Source of the DNA: Candidatus Saccharimonadota bacterium
GTDB lineage: Bacteria > Patescibacteriota > Saccharimonadia > Saccharimonadales > Saccharimonadaceae
DNA length: 32,000 nucleotides
NCBI GenBank assembly: GCA_001897305.1
Contig: MKSO01000001.1
Location: 510,001 to 542,000, forward strand
Direction: 5' to 3'
The first letter of the stretch is position 1, and every line of letters begins with the position of its first letter. The notes beneath the pieces are model-generated. The model made no database searches, was not told the origin of the DNA, and saw only the letters and a list, made by a program, of their open reading frames with translations. This document shows, piece after piece, positions 18,912 to 30,600 of the stretch. The translations under genes and the position numbers were made by a program.

Positions 18912-18920
18912 GAGCCAATG

Positions 18921-19307
18921 TTAGGACGAAGACTGCATATCCACCTGCCAAATATCGGGCATCGTACTGTATTTAATAACCATCTTTTGATGCAACGCTT
19001 TTAGTTTTTCAGAATCGGTCTGGTTGAACTCAAACTGAGATGCTGCATTTCGCAATTTTTCGAGGTCGAACTCTTTGATGCAATCTCGAGCCCTACGAAT
19101 AATTTCCTGCATAAAAATATCGAGTGTTTCGTAGGCAAGCCAGGTATAGACTGCATCTAGACCTACGCCATGCACAATCTTACACCGCACCTGGTACCAA
19201 TATTCTATAAGTGATTGCCAATCATCGACGTTTTGTATTTCACCATTCCAGTGATTTGTTTCGTTTTTTAGGGGCTGCTTTTGCGTGACATCAACCAGAC
19301 GCTTCAT
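18921..19307 (-). CDS. Hypothetical protein, 128 aa, with a HEPN-like Rx4H motif (WYQVRCKIVHG; R41, H46)
   Basis: The ATG overlaps the stop of the upstream ORF (ATGA at 19304-19307). The R codon is at 19185-19187 and the H codon at 19170-19172. The predicted protein is helical. The family call rests on the motif only. Confidence 0.55.
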   Translation of the reverse strand: MKRLVDVTQKQPLKNETNHWNGEIQNVDDWQSLIEYWYQVRCKIVHGVGLDAVYTWLAYETLDIFMQEIIRRARDCIKEFDLEKLRNAASQFEFNQTDSEKLKALHQKMVIKYSTMPDIWQVDMQSSS

Positions 19308-19555
19308 GTAGACTTAAGTGGTGTCATGCTATTGCCAATTCGATAATCCTCCCAGATACCTACTCTTGCTTTTAGTAGCGTAATGGCCTTGCGGTCATTT
19401 GTCGTAACCGTCACTCGACGATACCACGCATTATATGCTGCATATAATAACATGAAGCGTTGCTCGTAATCTATCATTGATTTTTCATACAACTCACATA
19501 CCTTTTCAAATCCAAAAGGAACATTATAGCTGCCATTGTTCGATATGTCCGTCAT
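19304..19555 (-). CDS. Hypothetical protein, 83 aa (88 aa if started at 19570); possible N-terminal half of a split HEPN-like domain
   Basis: The ATG at 19553-19555 overlaps the RadC-like stop (ATGA). The segment RFMLLYAAYNAWYRRVTVTTNDRKAITLLKA resembles the first helices of some HEPN families, from memory and unverified. Confidence 0.5.
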   Translation of the reverse strand: MTDISNNGSYNVPFGFEKVCELYEKSMIDYEQRFMLLYAAYNAWYRRVTVTTNDRKAITLLKARVGIWEDYRIGNSMTPLKST

Positions 19556-20187
19556 AGGACGCTTCCCCATTCTTGACAGGAGGGTCCGTAAACCGCATAT
19601 ATCCCTTTGAGCTTTATGCCTAAAAGTCGTGAGGTTTCGTACATAGAACCCATAAGCCCTATTTCCTGTGGATTTGGCCCTTTAGTGCTATTTTTCGTCA
19701 CGATAAATATATACACGTTGCGAGCATGAACAGTAAGAGCATCGGTAAAAATCCGCTTAGCAATAAGGCTGTAGTGTTCATTTTTCACTAGGGTATACGA
19801 CTTATGATCGATTTCTTTCATAAAGCCGTCTAGCCAATAGCTCACGACTTGATGACCACGTATATTCGCCAGTTCACCAACGTATTTACTAACGAGTTCT
19901 GTCGACTCACGATCACCAGAATTCTCCATCACCATGCGCCGCCCAAGTTCGACCGCACCAAGCAACTGGCAGGCCTTAGCATCACCAAGTCCAACAATAC
20001 CAACAAGCGAGCTATACTGAAAGTTCCCTGCCAAAAGAAGACTTTCGACTCGTTTGGATAATTTTGCCGCCGAAACCCGAGCACTCCCAGAGCCAATAAT
20101 AAGTTGAATGAGCTCAACCAAGCTTAAGTAACGCACCCCTTGAGCACGCAGCTTTTCTCTTGGTTGTTCGTATAAAACTTGCCCCAT
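19552..20187 (-). CDS. RadC-like protein with a degenerate (probably inactive) JAB/JAMM motif, 211 aa
   Basis: The N-terminus PREKLRAQGVRYLSLVELIQLIIGSGSARVSAAKLSKRV...GLGDAKACQLLGAVELGRR matches the RadC helix-hairpin-helix region. In the C-terminal JAB region the expected HNHPSG...PS..D...DH is replaced by VTKNSTKGPNPQE...KG. Confidence 0.7.
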   Translation of the reverse strand: MGQVLYEQPREKLRAQGVRYLSLVELIQLIIGSGSARVSAAKLSKRVESLLLAGNFQYSSLVGIVGLGDAKACQLLGAVELGRRMVMENSGDRESTELVSKYVGELANIRGHQVVSYWLDGFMKEIDHKSYTLVKNEHYSLIAKRIFTDALTVHARNVYIFIVTKNSTKGPNPQEIGLMGSMYETSRLLGIKLKGIYAVYGPSCQEWGSVL

Positions 20188-20207
20188 ATCACTATGATAC
20201 GGGGCAA
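20179..20207 (-). terminator. Terminator-like hairpin after fusA that includes the RadC-like start codon
   Basis: On the minus strand the sequence is UUGCCCC-15 nt loop-GGGGCAA followed by GUUUUAU. The 3' arm is codons 2-3 of the RadC-like ORF. Confidence 0.4.
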
Positions 20208-20239
20208 ATCTTAACTAATTTTGAACTTTATTACTAAAG

Positions 20240-22333
20240 TTATTTATTTGTACGCTTTGCAATAATCTCTTGCATCACGTTTGGTGGTACTTCTTCGTAC
20301 TGGGCAAGTTCCATGGTTGAAGCGGCACGACCTTGGCTCATTGAACGAATGTCGTTGGTGTACCCAAAGAGGTTTGCAAGTGGTACGTAGGCACGAACCA
20401 ACTTAGCACCACCAGGAATGTCTTCCATGGCGTCAATACGGCCACGACGAGAGTTAAGGTCGCCGATGATGTCACCCATGAAATCTTCTGGAGTTGAAAC
20501 TTCAACTTTCATGACAGGCTCAAGGATAACTGGGCGCGCTTGTGGAATACCGGCCTTTACAGCCAATACACCTGCCAAGTTAAAGGCGAGTTCGCTTGAG
20601 TCGACGTCGTGGTAGCTACCATCGTAGAGGGTTGCTTTTACACCAATCATTGGGTAACCAGCGATCACACCGCCCTCGAGCGTATCTTTAATACCCTTCT
20701 GAACTGGTGCGCGGTATTCTTGCGGCACCACACCACCCTTAATTTCGTCAACGAATTCGAAGCCTTCACCAGATTCGGTCGGTTCGAAACGAATCCAAAC
20801 ATCACCATACTGTCCACGACCACCAGATTGCTTAGCATGCTTACCCTGAGCTTCAGCGGTACCACGAATAGTTTCACGGAAGGCCACTTGCGGTTCACCA
20901 ATGTTGGCTTCAACGTTAAATTCACGCTTCATACGGTCAACGAGGATGTCGAGGTGAAGCTCACCCATACCTGACATAATGGTTTGGCCGGTTTCTTCGT
21001 CGGTGTGAATACGGAAGGTTGGGTCTTCTTCGGCTAGACGCTGCAGGGCAATACCCATCTTTTCTTGGTCGGCTTTTGTCTTAGGCTCAACCGCAATCGA
21101 TACAGGAGGTTCTGGGAATTCAATTGACTCAAGTACGATTGGGTGTGCTGGGTCAGACAGAGTATGACCTGTGAAAGTCGTCTTAAGGCCAACAACGGCG
21201 GCGATGTCACCAGCGCCAACGTGGTCGATGTCTTCACGCTTGTCGGCGTGCATACGAACAATACGGCCAATACGCTCTTTTTCACCCGTTGTGGTGTTAA
21301 GCACATAGCTACCAGCTGTAAGCTTACCGCTATATACACGAACAAAGATTAGACGGCCAACGAATGGGTCGCTAGCGATCTTAAAGGCTAGCGCAGAAAG
21401 AGGCTCGCTGTCAGCAGGTTGGCGTTCAACGACATCACCAGTCTTAGGGTTGGTACCCTGAATCGCCTCAACATCAAGCGGCGAAGGCAAGAAGTCGTTT
21501 ACAAGGTCAAGCACCTTTTCAACGATTACACCACGGCCATCACCACCAGTCACGAGGAAGAAGTCACCGGCAAGGACACGCTTGCGAAGCGCACGCTTAA
21601 GCTCTTCAAGAGTGATAGACTCTTCACCTTCTTCAAGGAAACGTTCGAAGAGTTCATCTTCTGCTTCAACTGCTGCTTCAACTAATAGACTGCGAGCATT
21701 CTTGGCTTTTTCAAGCATGTCGGCTGGGATTTCACCTTGAACCAAAGCCTTGTCAGTATAGTCACTGTAGGTGTAGGCTTTCATGTCGAGAAGGTCAACA
21801 AGACCGTTGATGTCCTTTTCAAAGCCAATAGGAAGGTGCACAGGAAGTGCGTGCTTCGAAAGACGGTTGTGAATACTATCGAGAGACTTGTAGAAATCAC
21901 CACCAATTTGGTTAATCTTGTTTACGAAACAAATACGAGGCACGCCGTACTTGTTCGCCTGGCGCCATACGGTCTCGGTCTGAGCTTCAACACCCATCTT
22001 ACCGTCGAACACAGTGACCGCACCGTCGAGGACACGAAGTGAACGCTCAACCTCAGCGGTAAAGTCGATGTGACCTGGCGTGTCAATGATGTTGATCTTG
22101 TGACCCTTCCAGAAACACGTAACAGCAGCAGAGGTAATCGTAATACCACGCTCTTTCTCTTGCGCCATCCAGTCAGTGGTTGCACCGTCGCCGTCGCCAC
22201 GAACTTCACCAATCTTGTGGTTAATACCCGTACGGTACAAAATACCTTCAGTAGTAGTGGTCTTACCCGCGTCAATGTGGGCAATAATACCAATGTTTCG
22301 ATAGTCCTTAAGTGGGACGTTTGCTTGAGCCAT
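20240..22333 (-). CDS. fusA: Elongation factor G
   Basis: 697-aa ORF with ...[21 protein letters not shown]... and ...[23 protein letters not shown]..., showing full five-domain EF-G architecture. Confidence 0.98.
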
Positions 22334-22386: not shown

Positions 22387-22415
22387 ATTATAACAGATAC
22401 TAAGGCCTATGACTA
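22387..22415 (-). promoter_or_regulatory. Candidate promoter for fusA: TAGTCA-17 nt-TATAAT, overlapping the 3' end of the 333-aa ORF
   Basis: On the minus strand the -10 element is at 22387-22392 and the -35 element at 22410-22415. The ORF stop is at 22400-22402. Confidence 0.45.
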
Positions 22416-23401
22416 GTTACTGTATAAAAAGCTTTTCGCAACGATACTATTGATTTGATTGATGATAGTGGTACCGTATATGTCATTGATTCCTGTCGAT
22501 GATCCATAGGGTATACTCGTGACTTAACAACCAATTGGTAGCTGGAAGAAATACTGTTAGTATCTACCATTCTTGGAATCAAGTTGATGTTCGAGAGGTG
22601 GGTCATGGCGCGCATATTAGTGACTTCATAGCATATATTATGGCCCATCTTTTTATCTTTTCGAATAATCGGCCCCTCTATAACCGCTTCGTAAGGCATG
22701 TCCTTGTCAAGAACTATGAGGCCACGTAGATATTCTTTGACACAATTCCTTGATAGAGGGTCACTGAGATCAATCCACTGTTCTATATCCAGGTCAGCAA
22801 CCGCTTCTAATGCTTCTGTTTCGGACATTACACCCAAAAGTCGCCTATCAATTTCATCTACAAACAAAGGATATTGCAAGGTCACCCAATTAAAGGCCCT
22901 TTCTTTTGATGCTTTATCTGTATCAACAATAACGTCAGTAAGCTTACCAGTAGCTCTTACGTACTGCTCGCCCTCAGGCGGATTTGGTACACAGTCTGCG
23001 GGAACAACAAAGTCATGTAATAGTTCAGAATAAGATCGGTCATCTTTAATAGCCGACGTAGTGACTGCATTAAAACCGTTTGAGATAACCGTCGTATCCC
23101 AGAGTATTGCTTGACTTCTCTGTCCTTTACCATCTCTGTACTCAATCAACCCTCGAACCTTAAGCTTTTCTCCTAACCACTCCCCCCACTTGCGGTCAAA
23201 TTCCGCTACAATCTCCTGCCTGTGCTGTAAGCTGTTGGGTATAGTTGTAAGTAGTTCATTAGCCGAGTAGGCTTCGGAGAGAACTCTATCCATAGCAGGT
23301 TCGCGTAATAGACCAATTTGCTCCTCAAGGGCGGCGAGCGATCCATCGCTAACCTCAAGATTATTCGCATTGTTGTCGAAAGACTCATTTTCTGCTGACA
23401 T
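22400..23401 (-). CDS. Hypothetical protein, 333 aa (cassette ORF4), no recognisable domain
   Basis: ATG preceded by AAGAGGA 7 nt upstream and 18 nt after the ORF3 stop. The N-terminus is acidic and the rest appears mixed alpha/beta. The DNA is AT-rich. Confidence 0.7.
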   Translation of the reverse strand: MSAENESFDNNANNLEVSDGSLAALEEQIGLLREPAMDRVLSEAYSANELLTTIPNSLQHRQEIVAEFDRKWGEWLGEKLKVRGLIEYRDGKGQRSQAILWDTTVISNGFNAVTTSAIKDDRSYSELLHDFVVPADCVPNPPEGEQYVRATGKLTDVIVDTDKASKERAFNWVTLQYPLFVDEIDRRLLGVMSETEALEAVADLDIEQWIDLSDPLSRNCVKEYLRGLIVLDKDMPYEAVIEGPIIRKDKKMGHNICYEVTNMRAMTHLSNINLIPRMVDTNSISSSYQLVVKSRVYPMDHRQESMTYTVPLSSIKSIVSLRKAFYTVTSHRP

Positions 23402-23419
23402 AACTATCCTCTTTGACTA

Positions 23420-24109
23420 TCAATGGTCCAAAAGTTCGGCGAATTGAGCGTCCCAATCAATGTCATGTGCTGATTGCGCAAGCGCCTGCATTACTGCCCG
23501 CTCCTGCTTTGCGAAAAGTATTTCATGCTGATTGAAGGCTAGTTTCGCAACGGCTCCCGTGCCCGTTTCAAACATACGCTGCTTAGTAACGTCTTTGACA
23601 AACCGTTCACTCCAATGCTCAATAATATCGTTTGTCTGAGGACCCATTAGAACGAGCCCTCGGTGTCCCATATTTAAAATAGCTTCACTAATTTGATGAT
23701 GCGTATGTGCTTCATCATCAGTGTTATTTTCAATCCCACCTAGCTCAACATTGGAATATAACCGCAACGGCGAGAGTGCAGAACCGTGCGCTTCATATAT
23801 CAAAAGAGCACCAGCAGTCGCCCCAAGGTAAAAAGCCTCTTTAGACCTACGGTCTGAATCAATGAATTCACCGGTTGAGCGATCCATTGGCTCTACAAAG
23901 GCCGCTAACCGCTCCGTTTCTTGAAGAAAATTCTTAAAAGAATGTTTGTTTTGAAGAAATCGTGAATAAGCTACATCTATTGTAGTCTCGGATAAAACTG
24001 CATCTATCTTTTGAGCTGCAGTAAAATATTCGTCGTGAGTAGGGAGTTCTGGTATTGTCGGTTCGGGCATAGCAATCATTATACCCCGCACATCACGTGA
24101 CTCAAGCAT
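23420..24109 (-). CDS. Hypothetical protein, 229 aa by the ORF track (cassette ORF3), a paralogue of ORF1; the true start may be the ATG at 24068-24070 (216 aa)
   Basis: Collinear similarity to the 240-aa protein. From M14 the N-terminus MPEPTIPELPTHDEY parallels MLPTPEQLPTPNDY of ORF1. Confidence 0.7.
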   Translation of the reverse strand: MLESRDVRGIMIAMPEPTIPELPTHDEYFTAAQKIDAVLSETTIDVAYSRFLQNKHSFKNFLQETERLAAFVEPMDRSTGEFIDSDRRSKEAFYLGATAGALLIYEAHGSALSPLRLYSNVELGGIENNTDDEAHTHHQISEAILNMGHRGLVLMGPQTNDIIEHWSERFVKDVTKQRMFETGTGAVAKLAFNQHEILFAKQERAVMQALAQSAHDIDWDAQFAELLDH

Positions 24110-24126
24110 AAGCTAGGTAGTAGCAA

Positions 24127-25242
24127 CTAGACTCGTGTTATAGGCGTTCCAAACTCTGGAAAGTGCTTCACAACCTCATCATTTCGATGGAACCGCATCA
24201 AGCCACTAGAAGCTATATCATCAAACCTCACAAGGCCTTGTTGATAAAGACGGAGTGTTTCACGAAATTGAGTTGCAATATTTTCAATAGCCAATTCCTC
24301 ATCCACACTGGCCCCTCCTCTAACAAAGCGGCTAAATGCATCTACGGTACCGGACGGATCGTCTTCGTTGATTGTTAAGCGCACCCCTCCTGGAACAACG
24401 AGCGCATTATAGCGACGTTTTGCCCTTTTTGTGAGGCGTGATTTTATTTCTATCGGAATGACTTTACGAATATTCCCCCAATGTTGGTTGACTATCATAA
24501 TGTCATGGGTTTGTCTGGCATTGTAAAGCCCTGACCCCCCTCTTACCGTAGATAGTAGTGGCACGTACCGTGGGTCATCAATAACTAGAGCGGCCATAAG
24601 TGCTATTGCTTCAAACAATAGTCCTTTGTGCTGCGCCTGCATTGCCCAATCATCTTGTTCAATTGCCGCTTGATATTCGATGTTAATACTGTCAGTAATA
24701 TGCGCTATGTCCGCCAATACCGATGCCATCACTCCATTACTAACATTCCCTACGATGATCGACTTTACTAGTGGCATTGTCGCTAAATTTAATGCAGTCC
24801 GATGGCCACCGTATTCATTGCGATCACCTACTTCAAATGTTAAATTTCTTCCTGCGTAAAGTTCGCTCACAAGTTGTCTTTGCCAAATTTGTTCACCCCT
24901 CATCGCTATAGCTAATCGATCAACAGCTGACGTGTCTGCCGCTAATAATGAAGCCTCTACATAAGCTGATCCTGCCGCTCTAAGATATTCTGGATACGTT
25001 TCTGATTCAAGTTTTTGACCATATTCAACCAGAATGTCCGGGCTTACAGCATCAGTCATTGATTTACTCAGTGTCATATATTCACGATAATCTTCATTAA
25101 GAAGATATCGATAATACCCTCCCGGCTGATCATATTCGCTCAAGCAATTTGGGTCAAAAGACTCGGGGGCGTCAAAATATAATGCAGATTTGAGGGCGTC
25201 ACTTCCAGGGAGGGGTGCATGAAAAACCCTCTCCCGTGGCAT
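24127..25242 (-). CDS. Hypothetical protein, 371 aa (cassette ORF2), with a PD-(D/E)xK nuclease-like core in the C-terminal half
   Basis: E211 (GLLFEAIALMAAL), D247 (QTHDIMIVN) and E265-I-K267 (VIPIEIKSRLTKRAKRRY) show the spacing typical of the restriction-endonuclease fold. The codons were verified at 24610-24612, 24502-24504 and 24442-24450. AAAGGA is the SD. The N-terminal roughly 200 aa are unassigned. Confidence 0.65.
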   Translation of the reverse strand: MPRERVFHAPLPGSDALKSALYFDAPESFDPNCLSEYDQPGGYYRYLLNEDYREYMTLSKSMTDAVSPDILVEYGQKLESETYPEYLRAAGSAYVEASLLAADTSAVDRLAIAMRGEQIWQRQLVSELYAGRNLTFEVGDRNEYGGHRTALNLATMPLVKSIIVGNVSNGVMASVLADIAHITDSINIEYQAAIEQDDWAMQAQHKGLLFEAIALMAALVIDDPRYVPLLSTVRGGSGLYNARQTHDIMIVNQHWGNIRKVIPIEIKSRLTKRAKRRYNALVVPGGVRLTINEDDPSGTVDAFSRFVRGGASVDEELAIENIATQFRETLRLYQQGLVRFDDIASSGLMRFHRNDEVVKHFPEFGTPITRV

Positions 25243-25346
25243 ATTAGTCCTTTTTCAACTTTCTGAATATATTGATTTTTGCTCCCATTTGCTTATGGTT
25301 ATACACCACACTCAAATATTTGGAAAGACTTTTTTGTTTTAAAAAT

Positions 25347-26069
25347 TTACGCATCACCCTGAAATTCACGCCAATGCCTATCCCAGTCACTTTCGGTATC
25401 CGTAGTCATATTATTTAAATCATTCTTATCAACAATTTCGTTAAAATCACCGTGGAGTCGCCGCTGGACGGCTTCAAACAAACTCTGACGAGAAGCGAAA
25501 TCGGCATCTATAATAATACCTACGCCTACTTGCACCATTCCTTCGGCTTCTGAATTGCTCGTATGGAGCAGTATTTCTTCCCACAGTTCAATGATTTCTT
25601 TACTTGTCGAAAGCGCACCCATCCCCCATCGTCCTGCAATATGAAGTTGGTCGAACAGTACAGCACGGTCCCCAACCTCATTGGCCCGATACTCAGCCGC
25701 GCGAAGCACAACATCAACGCCCTTGTTAATACGGGTTATATGCTCTGGCGTGGAATCAGGTGACGTTCGATGCATTGTATCCGTCAATAAAGAGCCTACT
25801 AGCATACCGTCTTGTAGAGCCTTCGCAGTTGCTTGTGCATCTTCAGTATGTGACCACGCTGGATTTGCATCACCCATACTCATCATCACAGACAAGTTAT
25901 TGACTCGTTGCAAAAAGTCTCTTCCCCTTCTGCTACGAAAAAGACCATTGCCGGAGAATCGGTCAATGGTCTTTCGTGGTCCACCCTCGCTCGCAAATAG
26001 TCGATCAAGCGCAATTGTAGCTCGACGATAATCATTAGGAGTAGGAAGTTGTTCCGGTGTCGGAAGCAT
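25347..26069 (-). CDS. Hypothetical protein, 240 aa (cassette ORF1), a paralogue of ORF3
   Basis: It starts 28 nt after the rpsG stop with no intervening hairpin. The protein is mostly helical. I recognise no family. Confidence 0.7.
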   Translation of the reverse strand: MLPTPEQLPTPNDYRRATIALDRLFASEGGPRKTIDRFSGNGLFRSRRGRDFLQRVNNLSVMMSMGDANPAWSHTEDAQATAKALQDGMLVGSLLTDTMHRTSPDSTPEHITRINKGVDVVLRAAEYRANEVGDRAVLFDQLHIAGRWGMGALSTSKEIIELWEEILLHTSNSEAEGMVQVGVGIIIDADFASRQSLFEAVQRRLHGDFNEIVDKNDLNNMTTDTESDWDRHWREFQGDA

Positions 26070-26097
26070 AGAGGTGGAGTATCCTGTTTATTGCGGG

Positions 26098-26577
26098 CTA
26101 ACCGCGTGCAAAGTGTGCGAAAGCACGGTTTGCTTCGGCCATCTTGTGGGTGTCTTCTTTTTTCTTGAAGGCAGCACCAGTTTCGTTGTAGGCATCAACG
26201 ATCTCAAGGGCGAGTCGTTGGCTGTAAGGAATACCCTTACGTGCGCGTGCGCTTTGTACAAGCCATGAAAATGCGTAGTGCAATTGGCGGTGGCCAGCTA
26301 CTGGGAATGGAATTTGGTAGTTTGCTCCACCAACACGACGGCTTTTTACTTCGAAGTTTGGAGAAACGTTCTTGAGGGCTTTTTCAAAGACTTCAAGTGG
26401 GTTTTCGCTATCAAGCTTTTTAGCTGCAGCTTCGAGTGCGTCGTAGACGGCACGCTCTGCAACAAGCTTTTTACCATTAAGCATTGACTTGTTGATTAGG
26501 CGCTGTACCATTACGCTTTGGTATTTGCGGTCTGGGTTAGGGATTCGCTGTAGGCTAACAGTTTTCTTACGTGGCAT
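26098..26577 (-). CDS. rpsG: 30S ribosomal protein S7
   Basis: 159-aa ORF with MPRKKTVSLQRIPNPDRKYQSVMVQRLINKSMLNGKKLVAERAVYDAL..., typical of S7. Confidence 0.96.
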   Translation of the reverse strand: MPRKKTVSLQRIPNPDRKYQSVMVQRLINKSMLNGKKLVAERAVYDALEAAAKKLDSENPLEVFEKALKNVSPNFEVKSRRVGGANYQIPFPVAGHRQLHYAFSWLVQSARARKGIPYSQRLALEIVDAYNETGAAFKKKEDTHKMAEANRAFAHFARG

Positions 26578-26993: not shown

Positions 26994-27196
26994 AAAACAA
27001 TACTTTCCTCTTAAAAATTAATGAGATTCACACCTTCTAGTTAAAGGATTCCTTTCTAATGAAAGGAGGCTAACGCAAAGAAACAGTAACTGCGTTAGGT
27101 GCTTCAGGCGATTCAGCAATTCGCTTAAAGCGGTGTTCATTGCACGTAGCCGTCTTGTACACGGTTCGGTTACGTATGAACGGAAACTCAACAGTA

Positions 27197-27225
27197 ATTA
27201 TAGCAGATATAACACAATACTTCAA
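27197..27225 (-). promoter_or_regulatory. Candidate promoter for rpsL: TTGAAG-17 nt-TATAAT, giving a structured leader of about 195 nt
   Basis: On the minus strand the -10 element is at 27197-27202 and the -35 element at 27220-27225. Leader hairpins lie at 27135-27181, 27071-27097 and 27051-27066. Confidence 0.5.
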
Positions 27226-27237
27226 TAGAAACAGTCC

Positions 27238-27552
27238 TTAGTCTTCATCCGGAAGAATGGGATACGGGTTACTCTTCGGCCTTAGTGCTCTTCGTTTTGC
27301 AAAGTATTCTTGGGCTATCTTGCGCTGTAGTTCGTTCCGTCGAGCAAGGTCATCCTTAGCTGCACTATCTTCGCCGACCTGCTCAGATGCGACATGACGG
27401 TCTGCGTTTCCCCGAGCATGTTCAATAGGCTCATCCACCCTTTGACGAACAATATCAGCTGCCCTACCTACAATAAATAGACGAGGACGATCTTCGGCTT
27501 TTATGCTTGATTGGTCCCCAGGTAAAGGGTTATGTTCAGAAATACTCATCAT
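27238..27552 (-). CDS. Hypothetical protein, 104 aa, charged with low-complexity character
   Basis: The ORF lies between the rpoC terminator and the rpsL promoter. AGGAG is about 11 nt upstream of a tandem ATG ATG. No motif was recognised, so its coding status is less certain than for its neighbours. Confidence 0.45.
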   Translation of the reverse strand: MMSISEHNPLPGDQSSIKAEDRPRLFIVGRAADIVRQRVDEPIEHARGNADRHVASEQVGEDSAAKDDLARRNELQRKIAQEYFAKRRALRPKSNPYPILPDED

Positions 27553-27574
27553 GACTCATTGTACTCCTAATGCT

Positions 27575-27607
27575 TATAAAACAAATAGCTCCACATAGGG
27601 AGCTATT
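27575..27607 (-). terminator. Rho-independent terminator after rpoC
   Basis: On the minus strand the sequence is AAUAGCUCC-CUAUGU-GGAGCUAUU followed by UGUUUUAU. The 9-bp stem arms are at 27584-27592 and 27599-27607. Confidence 0.75.
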
Positions 27608-27629
27608 CGTTAAGCACTTCGCAAATGCT

Positions 27630-30600
27630 TTAGGCAGCGATTTCGATATCTTCAGCGATATCGGCTACGATCTCTTCGTCGCTTTCCAATGTATCAAGTG
27701 CAGTTGCACTGTGCACACCAGTACCTACAGGGATCTTGCGACCGATGATCACATTTTCCTTGAGGCCGTGGAGTTGGTCTTGGCGACCACTTACCGCAGC
27801 GTTGATCAGTACACGAGTAGTGTCCTGGAATGATGCAGCTGAAAGCCAGCTATCAGACCAGATAGACACCTTAGTGATACCGAGGAGCAACTGAGTATAC
27901 GCGATTGGTTCTTGGCCAGCAGCAACCAGTTCATCGTTAGCTTCGACAACAGCAGCACGTGAGACGATGTCACCAGTAACAAATGAACTGTCACCTGGGT
28001 CTTCAACCTGAACACGGCTAAACATTTGACGAACGATGATCTCGAGGTGCTTGTCGGCAACATCTTGACCCTGTGCGGCGTAAATACGCAGTACTTCGTT
28101 GATGATGTACCGCTGAGTTGCTTCAACACCCTTGAGGCGCATGAGGTCGTGAAGGTTAAGTGAACCACCAGTCAGGCGATCACCAGCCTCAACAACATCA
28201 CCGCTCTTTACGAGGAGCTGCATAGAACCAGGTACTTCGTAACGTACTGGCGCGCCAGCGTTAGCTGCAACAATAACGTACTCGTCGGTTACTTCTGCTA
28301 CACCGTCAAATGGTGAAATGATTGGCTTGCTTTCACTTTCACCGCTTGCCAGCACGTCACCAGCCTTAACGTTGGCACCATTCTTGATACCAGCTGTACG
28401 GCCTTCAAGCGCCAGGCGCTCAACGTGACCAGCTTCAGGGGTTACTTGTACGATGTACTTCTTGCCATCTTCCCAAGCTTCAACCACACCAGTTACTTCA
28501 GTAAGGTGAGCTTGACCCTTAGGGTTACGAGCTTCAAACAACTCTTCAACACGAGGCAGACCCTGAGTAATGTCGCTTTCGGCCACACCTGAGGCGTGGA
28601 AGGTACGAAGCGTTAACTGTGTACCAGGCTCACCGACAGACTGTGCAGCGATCACACCAACTGGTTGTGCATCTGCAACAAGCGTGTTAGTTGACATGTC
28701 GATACCGTAGCTCTTACGAGGTACACCACGAAGGTTCTTCGTTGAAAGAACTGACATGATCTTTGCTTCGGTAATTTCAGCGTCTGCTTCAATTGCGTTG
28801 GCAATCTCGCGAGTAATGAGTTCACCAGCCTTAACGTGGCCAGCAATGTCTTCAGCGGCGTAACGTCCGTAGAGACGGTTACCAAAGTCAATCATAGTGA
28901 GTTCAGTTTCCGCACGGTAGATTGTGAATCCATCGTCATCACCAGCGTCTTCAACCGTAAACACATCTTGCGACACGTCAACGAGACGACGAGTGAGGTA
29001 CCCTGAGTCGGCCGTCTTAAGCGCGGTGTCGATCAGACCCTTACGTGAACCACGGGTAGCCACGAATTGCTCAAGGCTTGAAAGACCCTTCTTGTAACTT
29101 GAACGGATAGGTAGCTCAATTTCACGGTTGGTTGCATCAACCATAATACCGATCATAGCGCTAGCCAACATAACGTTCGAGATATCACCACGAGCACCAG
29201 AGTTCACCATCACAGACACGCTCGTATCCATGTCCTTCAACTTGTCTTGCAAGAAGTCGGTAATTTGGCGAACCACACCACGCCAAGTAGCAACAGTAAG
29301 GTTGTAACGCTCTTCGTCAGTAATAAGACCTTGGTCGTATTGCTCACTAATTAACGCAGCCTTAGCATCACCTTCGGCGATCATTTCGTCGGTTTCGTCG
29401 AAGTGAATGTAGTCGTCTTTACCAGTTGATACAGCCGAAACAGTAGCGAAGCGGAAGGCTAAGCCCTTCATACGGTCGGCTGTTTTAGCGGTCTCTTCAG
29501 CACCATACTTCAAGAAGATGTTATTAAGAACTTTCTTAATTTGCTTCTTGGTTTGAACGTTGTCATCGTATGGGTAATCAGCGGGAAGAATTTCGTTAAA
29601 GAACACACGACCAAGCGTTGTGTTACGGATTTCACCCTTTGCAAACACACGAATTGGCGTTTGGAGCTGGATGATGCCGTTGTCATACGCGATCTCGGCT
29701 TCATATACAGAACTGTATGGCTTAACATTTTCACTTTGAGCGCTTGGCTTGTTGTACGTAAGGTAGTAGTTACCAAGTACAACGTCCTGAGCGATTGAAA
29801 GCACTGGCGCACCATCGGCTGGCTTCAAGAGGTTAGCTGTTGCACTCATCAAAGTACGAGCTTCTTCTTGAGCTTGGCGGCTCAAAGGAAGGTGGACAGC
29901 CATCTGGTCACCGTCGTAGTCGGCGTTGAAACCGTTGGCTACAAGTGGGTGAAGTTGAATAGCCTTACCTTCAACCAACTTAGGCTGGAAAGCCTGGATT
30001 GATAGACGGTGAAGTGACGGTGCACGGTTCAAAAGAACGTACTTGCCTTCGATTACTGCATCAAGTGCGTCCCATACTACTGCTTCGCCAGCTTCAATCA
30101 GGCGTGAAGCAGAACGAATGTTGTGGGCGTACTCGTTGCGAATCAACCAGCTAATAACAAATGGTTTGAAGAGTTCAAGGGCCATTTGCTTAGGCAGACC
30201 ACACTCGTTGATCTTTAGCTTAGGACCAACCACAATAACTGAACGTCCAGAGTAGTCGACACGCTTACCAAGTAGGTTTTGACGGAAACGACCCTGCTTA
30301 CCCTTAAGCATGTCAGAGATTGACTTAAGACGGCGGCGACCACCGGTTGCATTAACCGCACGGCCACCACGGGCAGCTGAGTTATCAACCAAGGCGTCAA
30401 CGGCTTCTTGGAGCATACGCATTTCGTTGCGACGAATCACTTCAGGGGCGTTAAGCTCAATCAGCTTCTTTAGACGGTTGTTACGGTTAATGACACGGCG
30501 GTAAAGATCGTTAAGATCTGAGGTCGCAAAACGGCCACCCGTAAGCTGTACCATTGGACGGAGGTCCGGAGGAATAACAGGCAAAACGGTAAGCGTAAGG

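Follow-up and report, generated by a model that had tools for sequence, protein, structure and literature searches.

A putative PD-(D/E)xK nuclease with a conserved helical domain at a hypervariable cassette site between rpsG and fusA in Saccharibacteria

The stretch of DNA considered in this work, referred to below as the window, comprises 32,000 nucleotides from a Candidatus Saccharimonadota bacterium (positions 510,001 to 542,000 of contig MKSO01000001.1, assembly GCA_001897305.1). All of its genes from rpoC to tuf are located on the minus strand, and the order of the genes of interest is rpoC, a gene for a 104-residue orphan protein, rpsL, rpsG, o240, the gene for a putative nuclease, o229, o333, fusA and a RadC-like gene. 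The nuclease gene, whose product we assign to a family designated here as family N, is the main subject of this report. It is present in a variable segment of 3.7 kb between rpsG and fusA (Table 1), and the similarity of the window DNA to that of its relatives stops at about position 22398 and resumes at about position 26086. The gaps between the genes from rpsG to fusA are 17-104 nt in length. No intrinsic terminator on the coding strand was found in them, the sole minus-strand candidate being inside o229, and scans of the window for promoters and terminators gave nothing above the shuffled expectation, while an Rfam scan of the window revealed no RNA element.

A first-pass annotation of this stretch, made from its letters alone, had described a 371-residue cassette protein carrying a PD-(D/E)xK nuclease core behind an unassigned N-terminal region. 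The reading frame is as described, and it lies on the minus strand with ATG as its start codon. The residues that were named as catalytic, viz. E211, D247, E265 and K267, are encoded by GAA, GAC, GAA and AAA, respectively, the four peptide segments that were quoted begin at residues 206, 242, 260 and 269, as they should, and the spacing of 17 residues given for D247 and E265 is correct, as 17 residues lie between these two, which are 18 positions apart. If the assignment depended upon the bare motif, then it would carry no weight, because the pattern E-x(20-50)-D-x(10-30)-[DE]-x-K is present in 56% of 2000 shuffles of the 371-residue protein, which is no more than chance. The motif in the family N protein is real because its catalytic residues are conserved across homologues. 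All four of them are invariant across 39 close homologues. In a more diverse set of 86 homologues, whose identity to the query is 17-45%, no member lacks E211 or D247, K267 is kept in all except one, and E265 in all except three, two of which have Q and one A at this position. The conservation ranks of E211, D247, K267 and E265 among the 371 columns are 1st, 2nd, 3rd-8th (tied) and 11th, respectively, and the expectation of the first-pass annotation that D247, E265 and K267 should be conserved is thus borne out by the alignments. Further highly conserved positions of the core in the 86 members are R234, G238, T245 (kept in 80), H246 (kept in 81) and Y278, and the N-terminal domain has near-invariant polar residues of its own (Y55, K60, E96 and R148). 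Between the nuclease gene and that of a 97%-identical relative there are 34 synonymous and 14 non-synonymous differences, and the ratio of the non-synonymous to the synonymous rate (dN/dS) is 0.11, i.e. the gene is under purifying selection.

The structure of the protein was modelled using AlphaFold2 (AF2), both at full length (predicted local distance difference test, pLDDT, of 80; predicted template modelling score, pTM, of 0.84) and as a domain-only model of residues 196-340, a 145-residue core, built from 64 sequences (pLDDT 90.8). Both models contain a helix at residues 199-221, strands at 226-230, 246-254 and 257-267, a helix at 272-277 and a strand at 281-284, which is the alpha-beta-beta-beta-alpha-beta order that the PD-(D/E)xK superfamily requires. 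The full-length model is entirely helical up to residue 221, and two long helices follow the strand 281-284. E211 is located within the modelled helix 199-221 (alpha1), D247 is the second residue of the strand 246-254 (beta2), and E265 and K267 end the strand 257-267 (beta3), which is the predicted hairpin partner of beta2. The core topology anticipated in the first-pass annotation, and its placement of E211 on a helix and of D247 and E265-I-K267 on strands, are therefore reproduced by these models. The Foldseek comparison that it had proposed gave a divided answer, as the lists obtained with the domain model are dominated by the restriction-endonuclease fold, but they contain no significant hit to a known nuclease. 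The best PDB hit of the domain model is Hjc (4tkd_C; E = 0.26, root-mean-square deviation 3.5 A, 75 columns), and of the top 50 PDB hits we take at least 25 to be proteins of the restriction-endonuclease fold. They include Hjc, D212, MspI, BstEII, BsaWI, BsmI, TnsA, Bax1 and Prp8, together with EndA/tRNA-splicing endonucleases and viral cap-snatching endonucleases. In BFVD, the hits that carry a name are to a nuclease, VRR-NUC, Holliday-junction resolvases, DUF1064 and UL24/UL76, the best of them with E = 3.6e-3. With the full-length model, Foldseek returned only non-significant helical-repeat designs and nothing on the core. The PD-(D/E)xK assignment, which is based upon the modelled topology, the placement of the residues and their conservation, is well supported, and the protein is very probably a real metal-dependent nuclease. 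In these models, the C-terminal half of the protein is an intact PD-(D/E)xK catalytic domain, joined to a helical N-terminal domain that is conserved along with it.

The alternative that the protein is an inactive structural or binding protein on a PD-(D/E)xK-like scaffold would fit with the lack of a significant match to a characterised nuclease and with the loss of ExK in some distant paralogues. However, few positions of the family are as strongly conserved as the four catalytic residues, which is unexpected for a scaffold, and we regard this alternative as very improbable.

The region that the first-pass annotation had left unassigned, and put at about 200 residues, extends over about 195 residues, and it remains unassigned, as the 371-residue protein, inclusive of this region, shows no match to Pfam, NCBIfam, PADLOC, PHROGs or PDB sequences. 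Residues 1-195 are acidic (computed isoelectric point, pI, of 4.6) and the C-terminal half (residues 196-371) is basic (computed pI 9.05). Within the predicted disordered segment at the N-terminus, the close subfamily shows no variation at P12, D15 and L17, and the (Q)PLPGSDAL motif is unaligned in distant members. The helical domain that follows it is not a variable add-on, as it is found in nearly all of the 150 listed of the 173 family representatives described below. It also contains the near-invariant polar residues named above, and it could belong to the enzyme itself instead of being a swappable sensor.

Table 1. Positions in the window of the nuclease gene, its domains and catalytic codons, and of the surrounding features of the rpsG-fusA interval.
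Feature	Position	Strand	Basis
Open reading frame, 371-residue protein (family N), putative PD-(D/E)xK-type nuclease family	24127..25242	-	Translation, 38 close homologues, 173 cluster representatives, dN/dS = 0.11
Residues 1-27, predicted disordered, motif (Q)PLPGSDAL	25162..25242	-	pLDDT < 50
Residues 28-195, family-specific all-helical domain (predicted), with Y55, K60, E96, R148	24658..25161	-	AF2, conservation
Residues 196-290, predicted PD-(D/E)xK core	24373..24657	-	Domain model pLDDT 90.8, Foldseek lists
Residues 291-371, predicted helices 296-307 and 313-335, conserved LRLYQQG, then tail	24130..24372	-	AF2, conservation
E211 codon (GAA), core helix alpha1	24610..24612	-	Invariant in 86/86 homologues
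D247 codon (GAC), beta2 start, in conserved T-H-D	24502..24504	-	Invariant in 86/86 homologues
E265-I266-K267 codons, core strand beta3	24442..24450	-	E kept in 83/86, K in 85/86
Hypervariable cassette segment, rpsG to fusA	22399..26085	.	blastn against loci L003, L007, L048, L049 and L070; 43-locus survey
rpsG (ribosomal protein S7), upstream flank	26098..26577	-	86-97% identical to Pfam-S7-annotated orthologues
o240, family B, acidic, without known domain	25347..26069	-	Family clustering
o229, family B, directly downstream of nuclease gene	23420..24109	-	Family clustering
o333, family E cassette protein, without known domain	22400..23401	-	Library scans, family clustering
fusA (EF-G), downstream flank	20240..22333	-	82-96% identical to Pfam-EF-G-annotated orthologues

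A word-indexed search identified 38 full-length homologues of about 370 residues, none of which contains a Pfam domain, and an exhaustive profile search of 1.84 billion representatives detected 173 clusters (defined at 50% identity) at E <= 1e-3. The two-part architecture is common to almost all of the 150 listed among these 173 representatives, in which profile positions from about 50 onwards are covered. The named sources of family N are metagenome-assembled genomes of Saccharibacteria, with the exception of one labelled 'Dongiaceae', and this label looks wrong because the RpoC, S12 and EF-G encoded by its contig are 91-93% identical to those of the window. Pfam searches with 86 full-length members and 64 domain members gave nothing meaningful, the Pfam profiles for Hjc and VRR-NUC did not hit the 371-residue protein or the 64 domain sequences at E <= 10, and profile searches of the PDB with family N yielded no meaningful match. 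A domain-profile search of a set of 5.8 billion proteins returned nothing, not even the family itself, and it was treated as uninformative. Searches of the literature for the gene or the locus in Saccharibacteria also found no paper. To judge from these database comparisons, family N is a previously undescribed family. Its members are not restricted to the rpsG-fusA interval, as elsewhere in Saccharibacteria a member is found between ftsK and rpsF-ssb, and other members adjoin ftsK, rpsF-ssb, UDG or RmuC. Two tandem arrangements were also observed. At L020:4973-7062 (loci surveyed here are cited by numbers of this kind), a pair of family N paralogues is present beside RmuC in which ExK is replaced by QVV or QVT, and due to this replacement the pair is probably inactive. 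At L019:1350-4213 there is a tandem triple, one copy of which has QxK.

The distribution of the gene was initially misjudged. In loci that were found through the nuclease, the gene is located between rpsG and fusA in 14 of the 17 cases, in some of them as the sole gene there, and the first 14 loci had suggested that it is a constant, lineage-wide and hence housekeeping gene. This view was overturned by a sample drawn through RpoC, and it is withdrawn because the earlier loci had been found through the nuclease itself, which introduces an ascertainment bias. For the unbiased sample, 80 metagenomic loci were retrieved by means of a lineage-specific RpoC segment only, and 43 of these hold both rpsG and fusA. 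Many of the surveyed loci come from soil metagenomes (Ga02478xx series). In 14 of the 43 loci, rpsG and fusA are adjacent with no gene between them (gaps of 6-452 bp). Family N is present in 8 loci, and a divergent N-like gene with D...QxK in one more. An unrelated family, designated K, is present in 12 loci, and only other genes are found in the remaining 8. There is no locus out of 43 in which N and K are present together. None of the 19 closest loci, whose RpoC-segment identity is 81% or more, has an empty interval; N or N-like genes are found in 8 of them, K in 10, neither in 1 and both in none (hypergeometric P = 1.2e-4). The empty sites are all from more distant lineages with an RpoC-segment identity of 79% or less, and they are not intermixed with the occupied ones. 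In the cultured S. epibionticum ML1, too, the gene for S7 is next to that for EF-G and the interval is empty (PMC10633639, supplementary file 1).

The family K proteins are His-rich and about 263 residues long, with an invariant D-x-H-H...R...P-R-x-x-H-x-x-x-H pattern; one example is found at L039:13540-14328, and the window itself has no copy. Family K shows no match to Pfam, PDB or PADLOC, and it is a possible metal-dependent hydrolase. The cassette of most loci opens, after rpsG, with N or K, whereas in the window o240 precedes the nuclease gene. The same downstream modules can follow either N or K, as is seen for 'N E YajQ' versus 'K E YajQ', 'N B' versus 'K B' and 'N F' versus 'K B F'. 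Family B, with 21 members across the islands surveyed, is the commonest companion of both N and K. Its proteins are acidic (pI 5.0-5.1), and the two of the window, o240 and o229, are weak paralogues (22% identity, E = 1e-4 in BLASTP). For o229, a word-indexed search of 5.8 billion proteins found only 3 homologues. A shared ancestry of the acidic cassette families of about 330 residues (families C, D, E, F, G and H) was also considered, and it was rejected as the hhalign probabilities are 2% or less. In several lineages, a YajQ-family gene (PF04461) forms the last cassette module (L002:6832-7326, L010:7120-7614, L042, L044, L074 and L075), and within the close clade no other cassette family has a known domain. 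Conserved Pro-rich motifs were noted in the first 25 or so residues of the proteins of three families, viz. QPLPGSDALK in N, RLPPLEAWK in K and LPxLPTPxEY in B. Their resemblance is by eye, and they could conceivably represent a shared docking or export peptide.

Comparison of the DNA of closely related loci revealed the clean replacement of one of these genes by the other. One example of this kind is provided by L043, which has N, and L039, which has K. The upstream flanks of these loci are 94% identical until 17 nt before the start codon of N, and the similarity resumes 14 nt after its stop codon, with 88% identity downstream. Similarly, L042 (N + E) and L044 (K + E') have flanks that are 97% identical and a core that is non-alignable. 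The designation of this segment as a cassette in the first-pass annotation is thus upheld, as the rpsG-fusA segment is hypervariable, and between close relatives the whole of it is exchanged as one unit. N and K are mutually exclusive, non-homologous genes of a modular hypervariable cassette, and N is not a core gene.

The divergence of the nuclease differs from that of its surroundings. Among the loci, S7, EF-G and RpoC are 74-97% identical, whereas the nucleases are only 28-47% identical, i.e. 5-10x more divergent than the flanks. The distances based on RpoC and FusA are well correlated with each other (r = 0.89, Mantel P = 4e-4), whereas those based on the nuclease show correlations with RpoC and FusA of r = 0.41 and 0.28, which are not significant. 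The sister loci L006 and L009, with distances of 0.04 for RpoC and 0.05 for FusA, have nucleases that are 57% different, whereas the nucleases of L003 and L005, which are less related, are 22% different. These sequence comparisons indicate that the cassette has been exchanged between lineages across ultra-conserved flanks. Between the window and its counterpart at L025:3510-4625, the synonymous divergence (dS) of the nuclease gene is 0.146 in comparison to 0.03-0.06 for the other three cassette genes, which is 2.5-5x higher in the same genome pair, although the counts are small. To go by these values, the nuclease may have a separate recombination history even where the cassettes are near-identical.

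Our favoured reading is that the putative PD-(D/E)xK nuclease is the effector of an undescribed conflict cassette, for which we favour a defence-type role, and we put the chance of this reading being correct in all its layers at somewhat below even. According to it, the family N protein would be a Mg2+/Mn2+-dependent phosphodiesterase acting on nucleic acid, for which DNA is the most likely substrate because of the structural neighbours of the core and its basic character. It would act as the effector of a conflict system, for which defence against invading DNA is favoured. The helical domain would recognise the substrate or gate the active site, the cassette would be expressed by read-through of the str operon, and the acidic family B protein would be a frequent, but not obligatory, partner or modulator. 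The generic trait of defence islands is seen here, in that an accessory gene is present in a variable island between conserved flanking genes. A more far-reaching proposal, which is doubtful, is that N and K are idiomorph-like alternatives of a new modular conflict system in the str operon of environmental Saccharibacteria. In such a system, rpsG and fusA would serve as the recombination arms for cassette swaps by natural transformation, and read-through would provide constitutive expression.

A number of observations weigh against the favoured reading. No statistically significant structural or sequence match to any known nuclease was found. PADLOC 2.0 gave no hit to the five proteins of the window (E <= 1), nor did PADLOC to nine cassette proteins from other loci (E <= 0.01). 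In the N-containing cassettes no methyltransferase, helicase or ATPase partner was found; for methyltransferases specifically, the cassette proteins of the window and the scanned accessory cassette proteins contain no such domain, and none is recognisable in the recurrent families. Homologues of family N are absent from the phage, plasmid and IMG/VR collections. Defence genes are not usually found in ribosomal operons, and in another lineage a family N gene is found just upstream of rpsF-ssb. Over 18 loci, the nuclease and flank distances are correlated (r = 0.23-0.50, compared to 0.53-0.82 for the flanks among themselves), and due to this moderate correlation the inheritance is partly vertical, with repeated replacement; the highest nuclease-flank correlation (0.50) is with the 3' half of rpsG, and there is no distinct gradient. 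Lastly, the intervals of distant lineages carry ordinary metabolic genes (diacylglycerol kinase, PAP2 phosphatase, aldo-keto reductase), together with a HerA/TrwB-like ATPase, ABC transporters and proteases. As distant versions of the site carry metabolic genes, it is a general insertion hotspot that is not specific for defence, and for this reason the location of the gene should not, by itself, be interpreted as proving a defence role.

Saccharibacteria are epibionts of Actinobacteria, and the nuclease could be the toxin of a toxin-immunity pair or of a host-directed effector pair, acting against bacteria or against the host, with the acidic B protein as its inhibitor and the disordered N-terminal peptide as a delivery or docking signal. 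The pairing of a basic nuclease half with acidic B proteins, the location of a B gene immediately after N, seen in the window and at several other loci (the window has B genes on both sides of N), the fast evolution and replacement as a cassette, and the Pro-rich motif in the low-confidence N-terminal segment are all in accordance with this explanation. However, B is present in only 9 of the 22 N loci, which also sets the locus apart from toxin-immunity pairs, and it accompanies the unrelated K in 7 of 12 loci. Further, N is wholly alone in the interval at L013 and L097, and no sign of a signal peptide, or of any known domain for secretion or toxin delivery, was found. We therefore consider a toxin to be unlikely. 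A housekeeping function, viz. in DNA repair or recombination, nucleotide salvage or growth-coupled RNA processing via the str operon, for which K would be a non-orthologous replacement, is a somewhat less probable explanation. It would account for the presence of N or K in 18 of the 19 closest loci and for the apparent co-transcription with ribosomal genes, and it agrees with the association of other family members with ftsK, rpsF-ssb, UDG or RmuC and with junction resolvases being the best structural neighbours. It is difficult to reconcile with the empty intervals in 14 of the 43 loci and in the cultured S. epibionticum, with the much greater divergence of the nuclease than of its flanks and its discordant relationships, and with the wide variation in the companion genes.

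The nuclease could also be a free-standing, selfish homing endonuclease that cuts the nuclease-free rpsG-fusA junction, or a nearby conserved sequence, and is copied by repair together with the neighbouring cassette genes. The PD-(D/E)xK fold is an established one for homing endonucleases. The site between two highly conserved genes, the empty, N and K states among relatives, the replacement boundaries at the gene edges, the degenerate copies elsewhere in which ExK has become QVT or QVV, and the occupation of a second conserved junction (ftsK|rpsF) in another lineage are features that such an element could show. However, the empty sites are confined to the more distant lineages and are not mixed with the occupied ones. 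In addition, the gene is under strong purifying selection, its residence at the site is apparently long, with alleles that are only 28-47% identical, the flanks carry no clear co-conversion signal, and there are no phage or plasmid copies. Homing is thus, in our assessment, slightly less probable again than a housekeeping function, and a conflict cassette of the defence type is the reading that we prefer.

Comparison with known systems indicates both similarities and differences. The best structural neighbours of the 145-residue core are the minimal nucleases of the archaeal Hjc and VRR-NUC/phage resolvase type, in which, as in the family N models, E...D...ExK is distributed over alpha1, beta2 and beta3. 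However, these matches are non-significant (E = 0.26 and E >= 3.6e-3) and are not accompanied by a Pfam profile hit, family N has in addition the helical domain of about 195 residues and two C-terminal helices, and R234, G238, T245-H246 and Y278 are invariants specific for it. Shedu SduA and other single-protein PD-(D/E)xK defence effectors resemble family N in that their C-terminal PD-(D/E)xK domain is preceded by an N-terminal region without catalytic function, and in being accessory genes of variable chromosomal islands without a methyltransferase partner. Unlike these, family N matches no PADLOC model, inclusive of DUF4263/Shedu, and its N-terminal domain does not vary but is conserved across the family. 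Type II restriction-modification systems differ in that no cognate methyltransferase was found beside family N. Defence and accessory hotspots flanked by core genes have been described in the pan-genomes of Pseudomonas and E. coli, and the rpsG-fusA site shares with them the conserved flanks, the mosaic content and the sharp replacement boundaries between close relatives. The absence of an integrase from the rpsG-fusA cassette suggests that the exchange takes place through flanking homology. However, in contrast to those hotspots, this site lies inside the str operon, on the same strand and without terminators, and its content consists almost wholly of orphan families, with metabolic genes in distant lineages. 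The free-standing seg/mob homing endonucleases of T-even phages provide a precedent for unrelated putative nucleases that, from one genome to another, fill the same slot between conserved genes, and presence/absence polymorphism between conserved genes is a general likeness to homing endonucleases. They differ in that family N is found in a cellular chromosome, with an apparently long residence and under purifying selection, and no evidence of a target site or of co-conversion was found for it.

Family N is a new family and architecture within a well-known superfamily, and its setting, a cassette slot within rpsL-rpsG-fusA that is shared by two alternating proteins, is beyond the routine. The PD-(D/E)xK superfamily gains by it an uncatalogued family with its own obligatory helical domain, for which there is no Pfam, NCBIfam or PADLOC model. 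Further, an ultra-conserved bacterial operon is seen to host a hypervariable cassette site in a lineage of the candidate phyla radiation, where two unrelated proteins take each other's place, one gene for the other. Should the cassette prove to be a defence or toxin system, then it would provide a first handle on the conflict systems of Saccharibacteria, where the known defence models find almost nothing, and family N would offer a defined effector with four obvious point mutants.

Some other features of the region may be noted. The RadC-like gene (window 19552-20187, minus strand) is conserved downstream of fusA in relatives, with 30-50% identity. The only Pfam model that matches its product is the UPF0758 N-terminal one; the JAB/RadC catalytic domain gave no hit, and the usual His motif was not seen by eye. 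The window sequence from 18915 to 20240 is not alignable to relatives. In two loci (L001:13294-16760 and L003:12574-16046), four extra genes that are not in the window, for a pilin-like protein, two unknown proteins and a 575-residue RCC1-repeat protein, are present between fusA and the RadC-like gene. Another variable segment, a small one, is located between rpoC and rpsL (window 26997-27631). It contains in the window the gene for the 104-residue orphan protein (27238-27552, minus strand), and in relatives a pilin-like N_methyl protein, a 66-residue reading frame or other genes.

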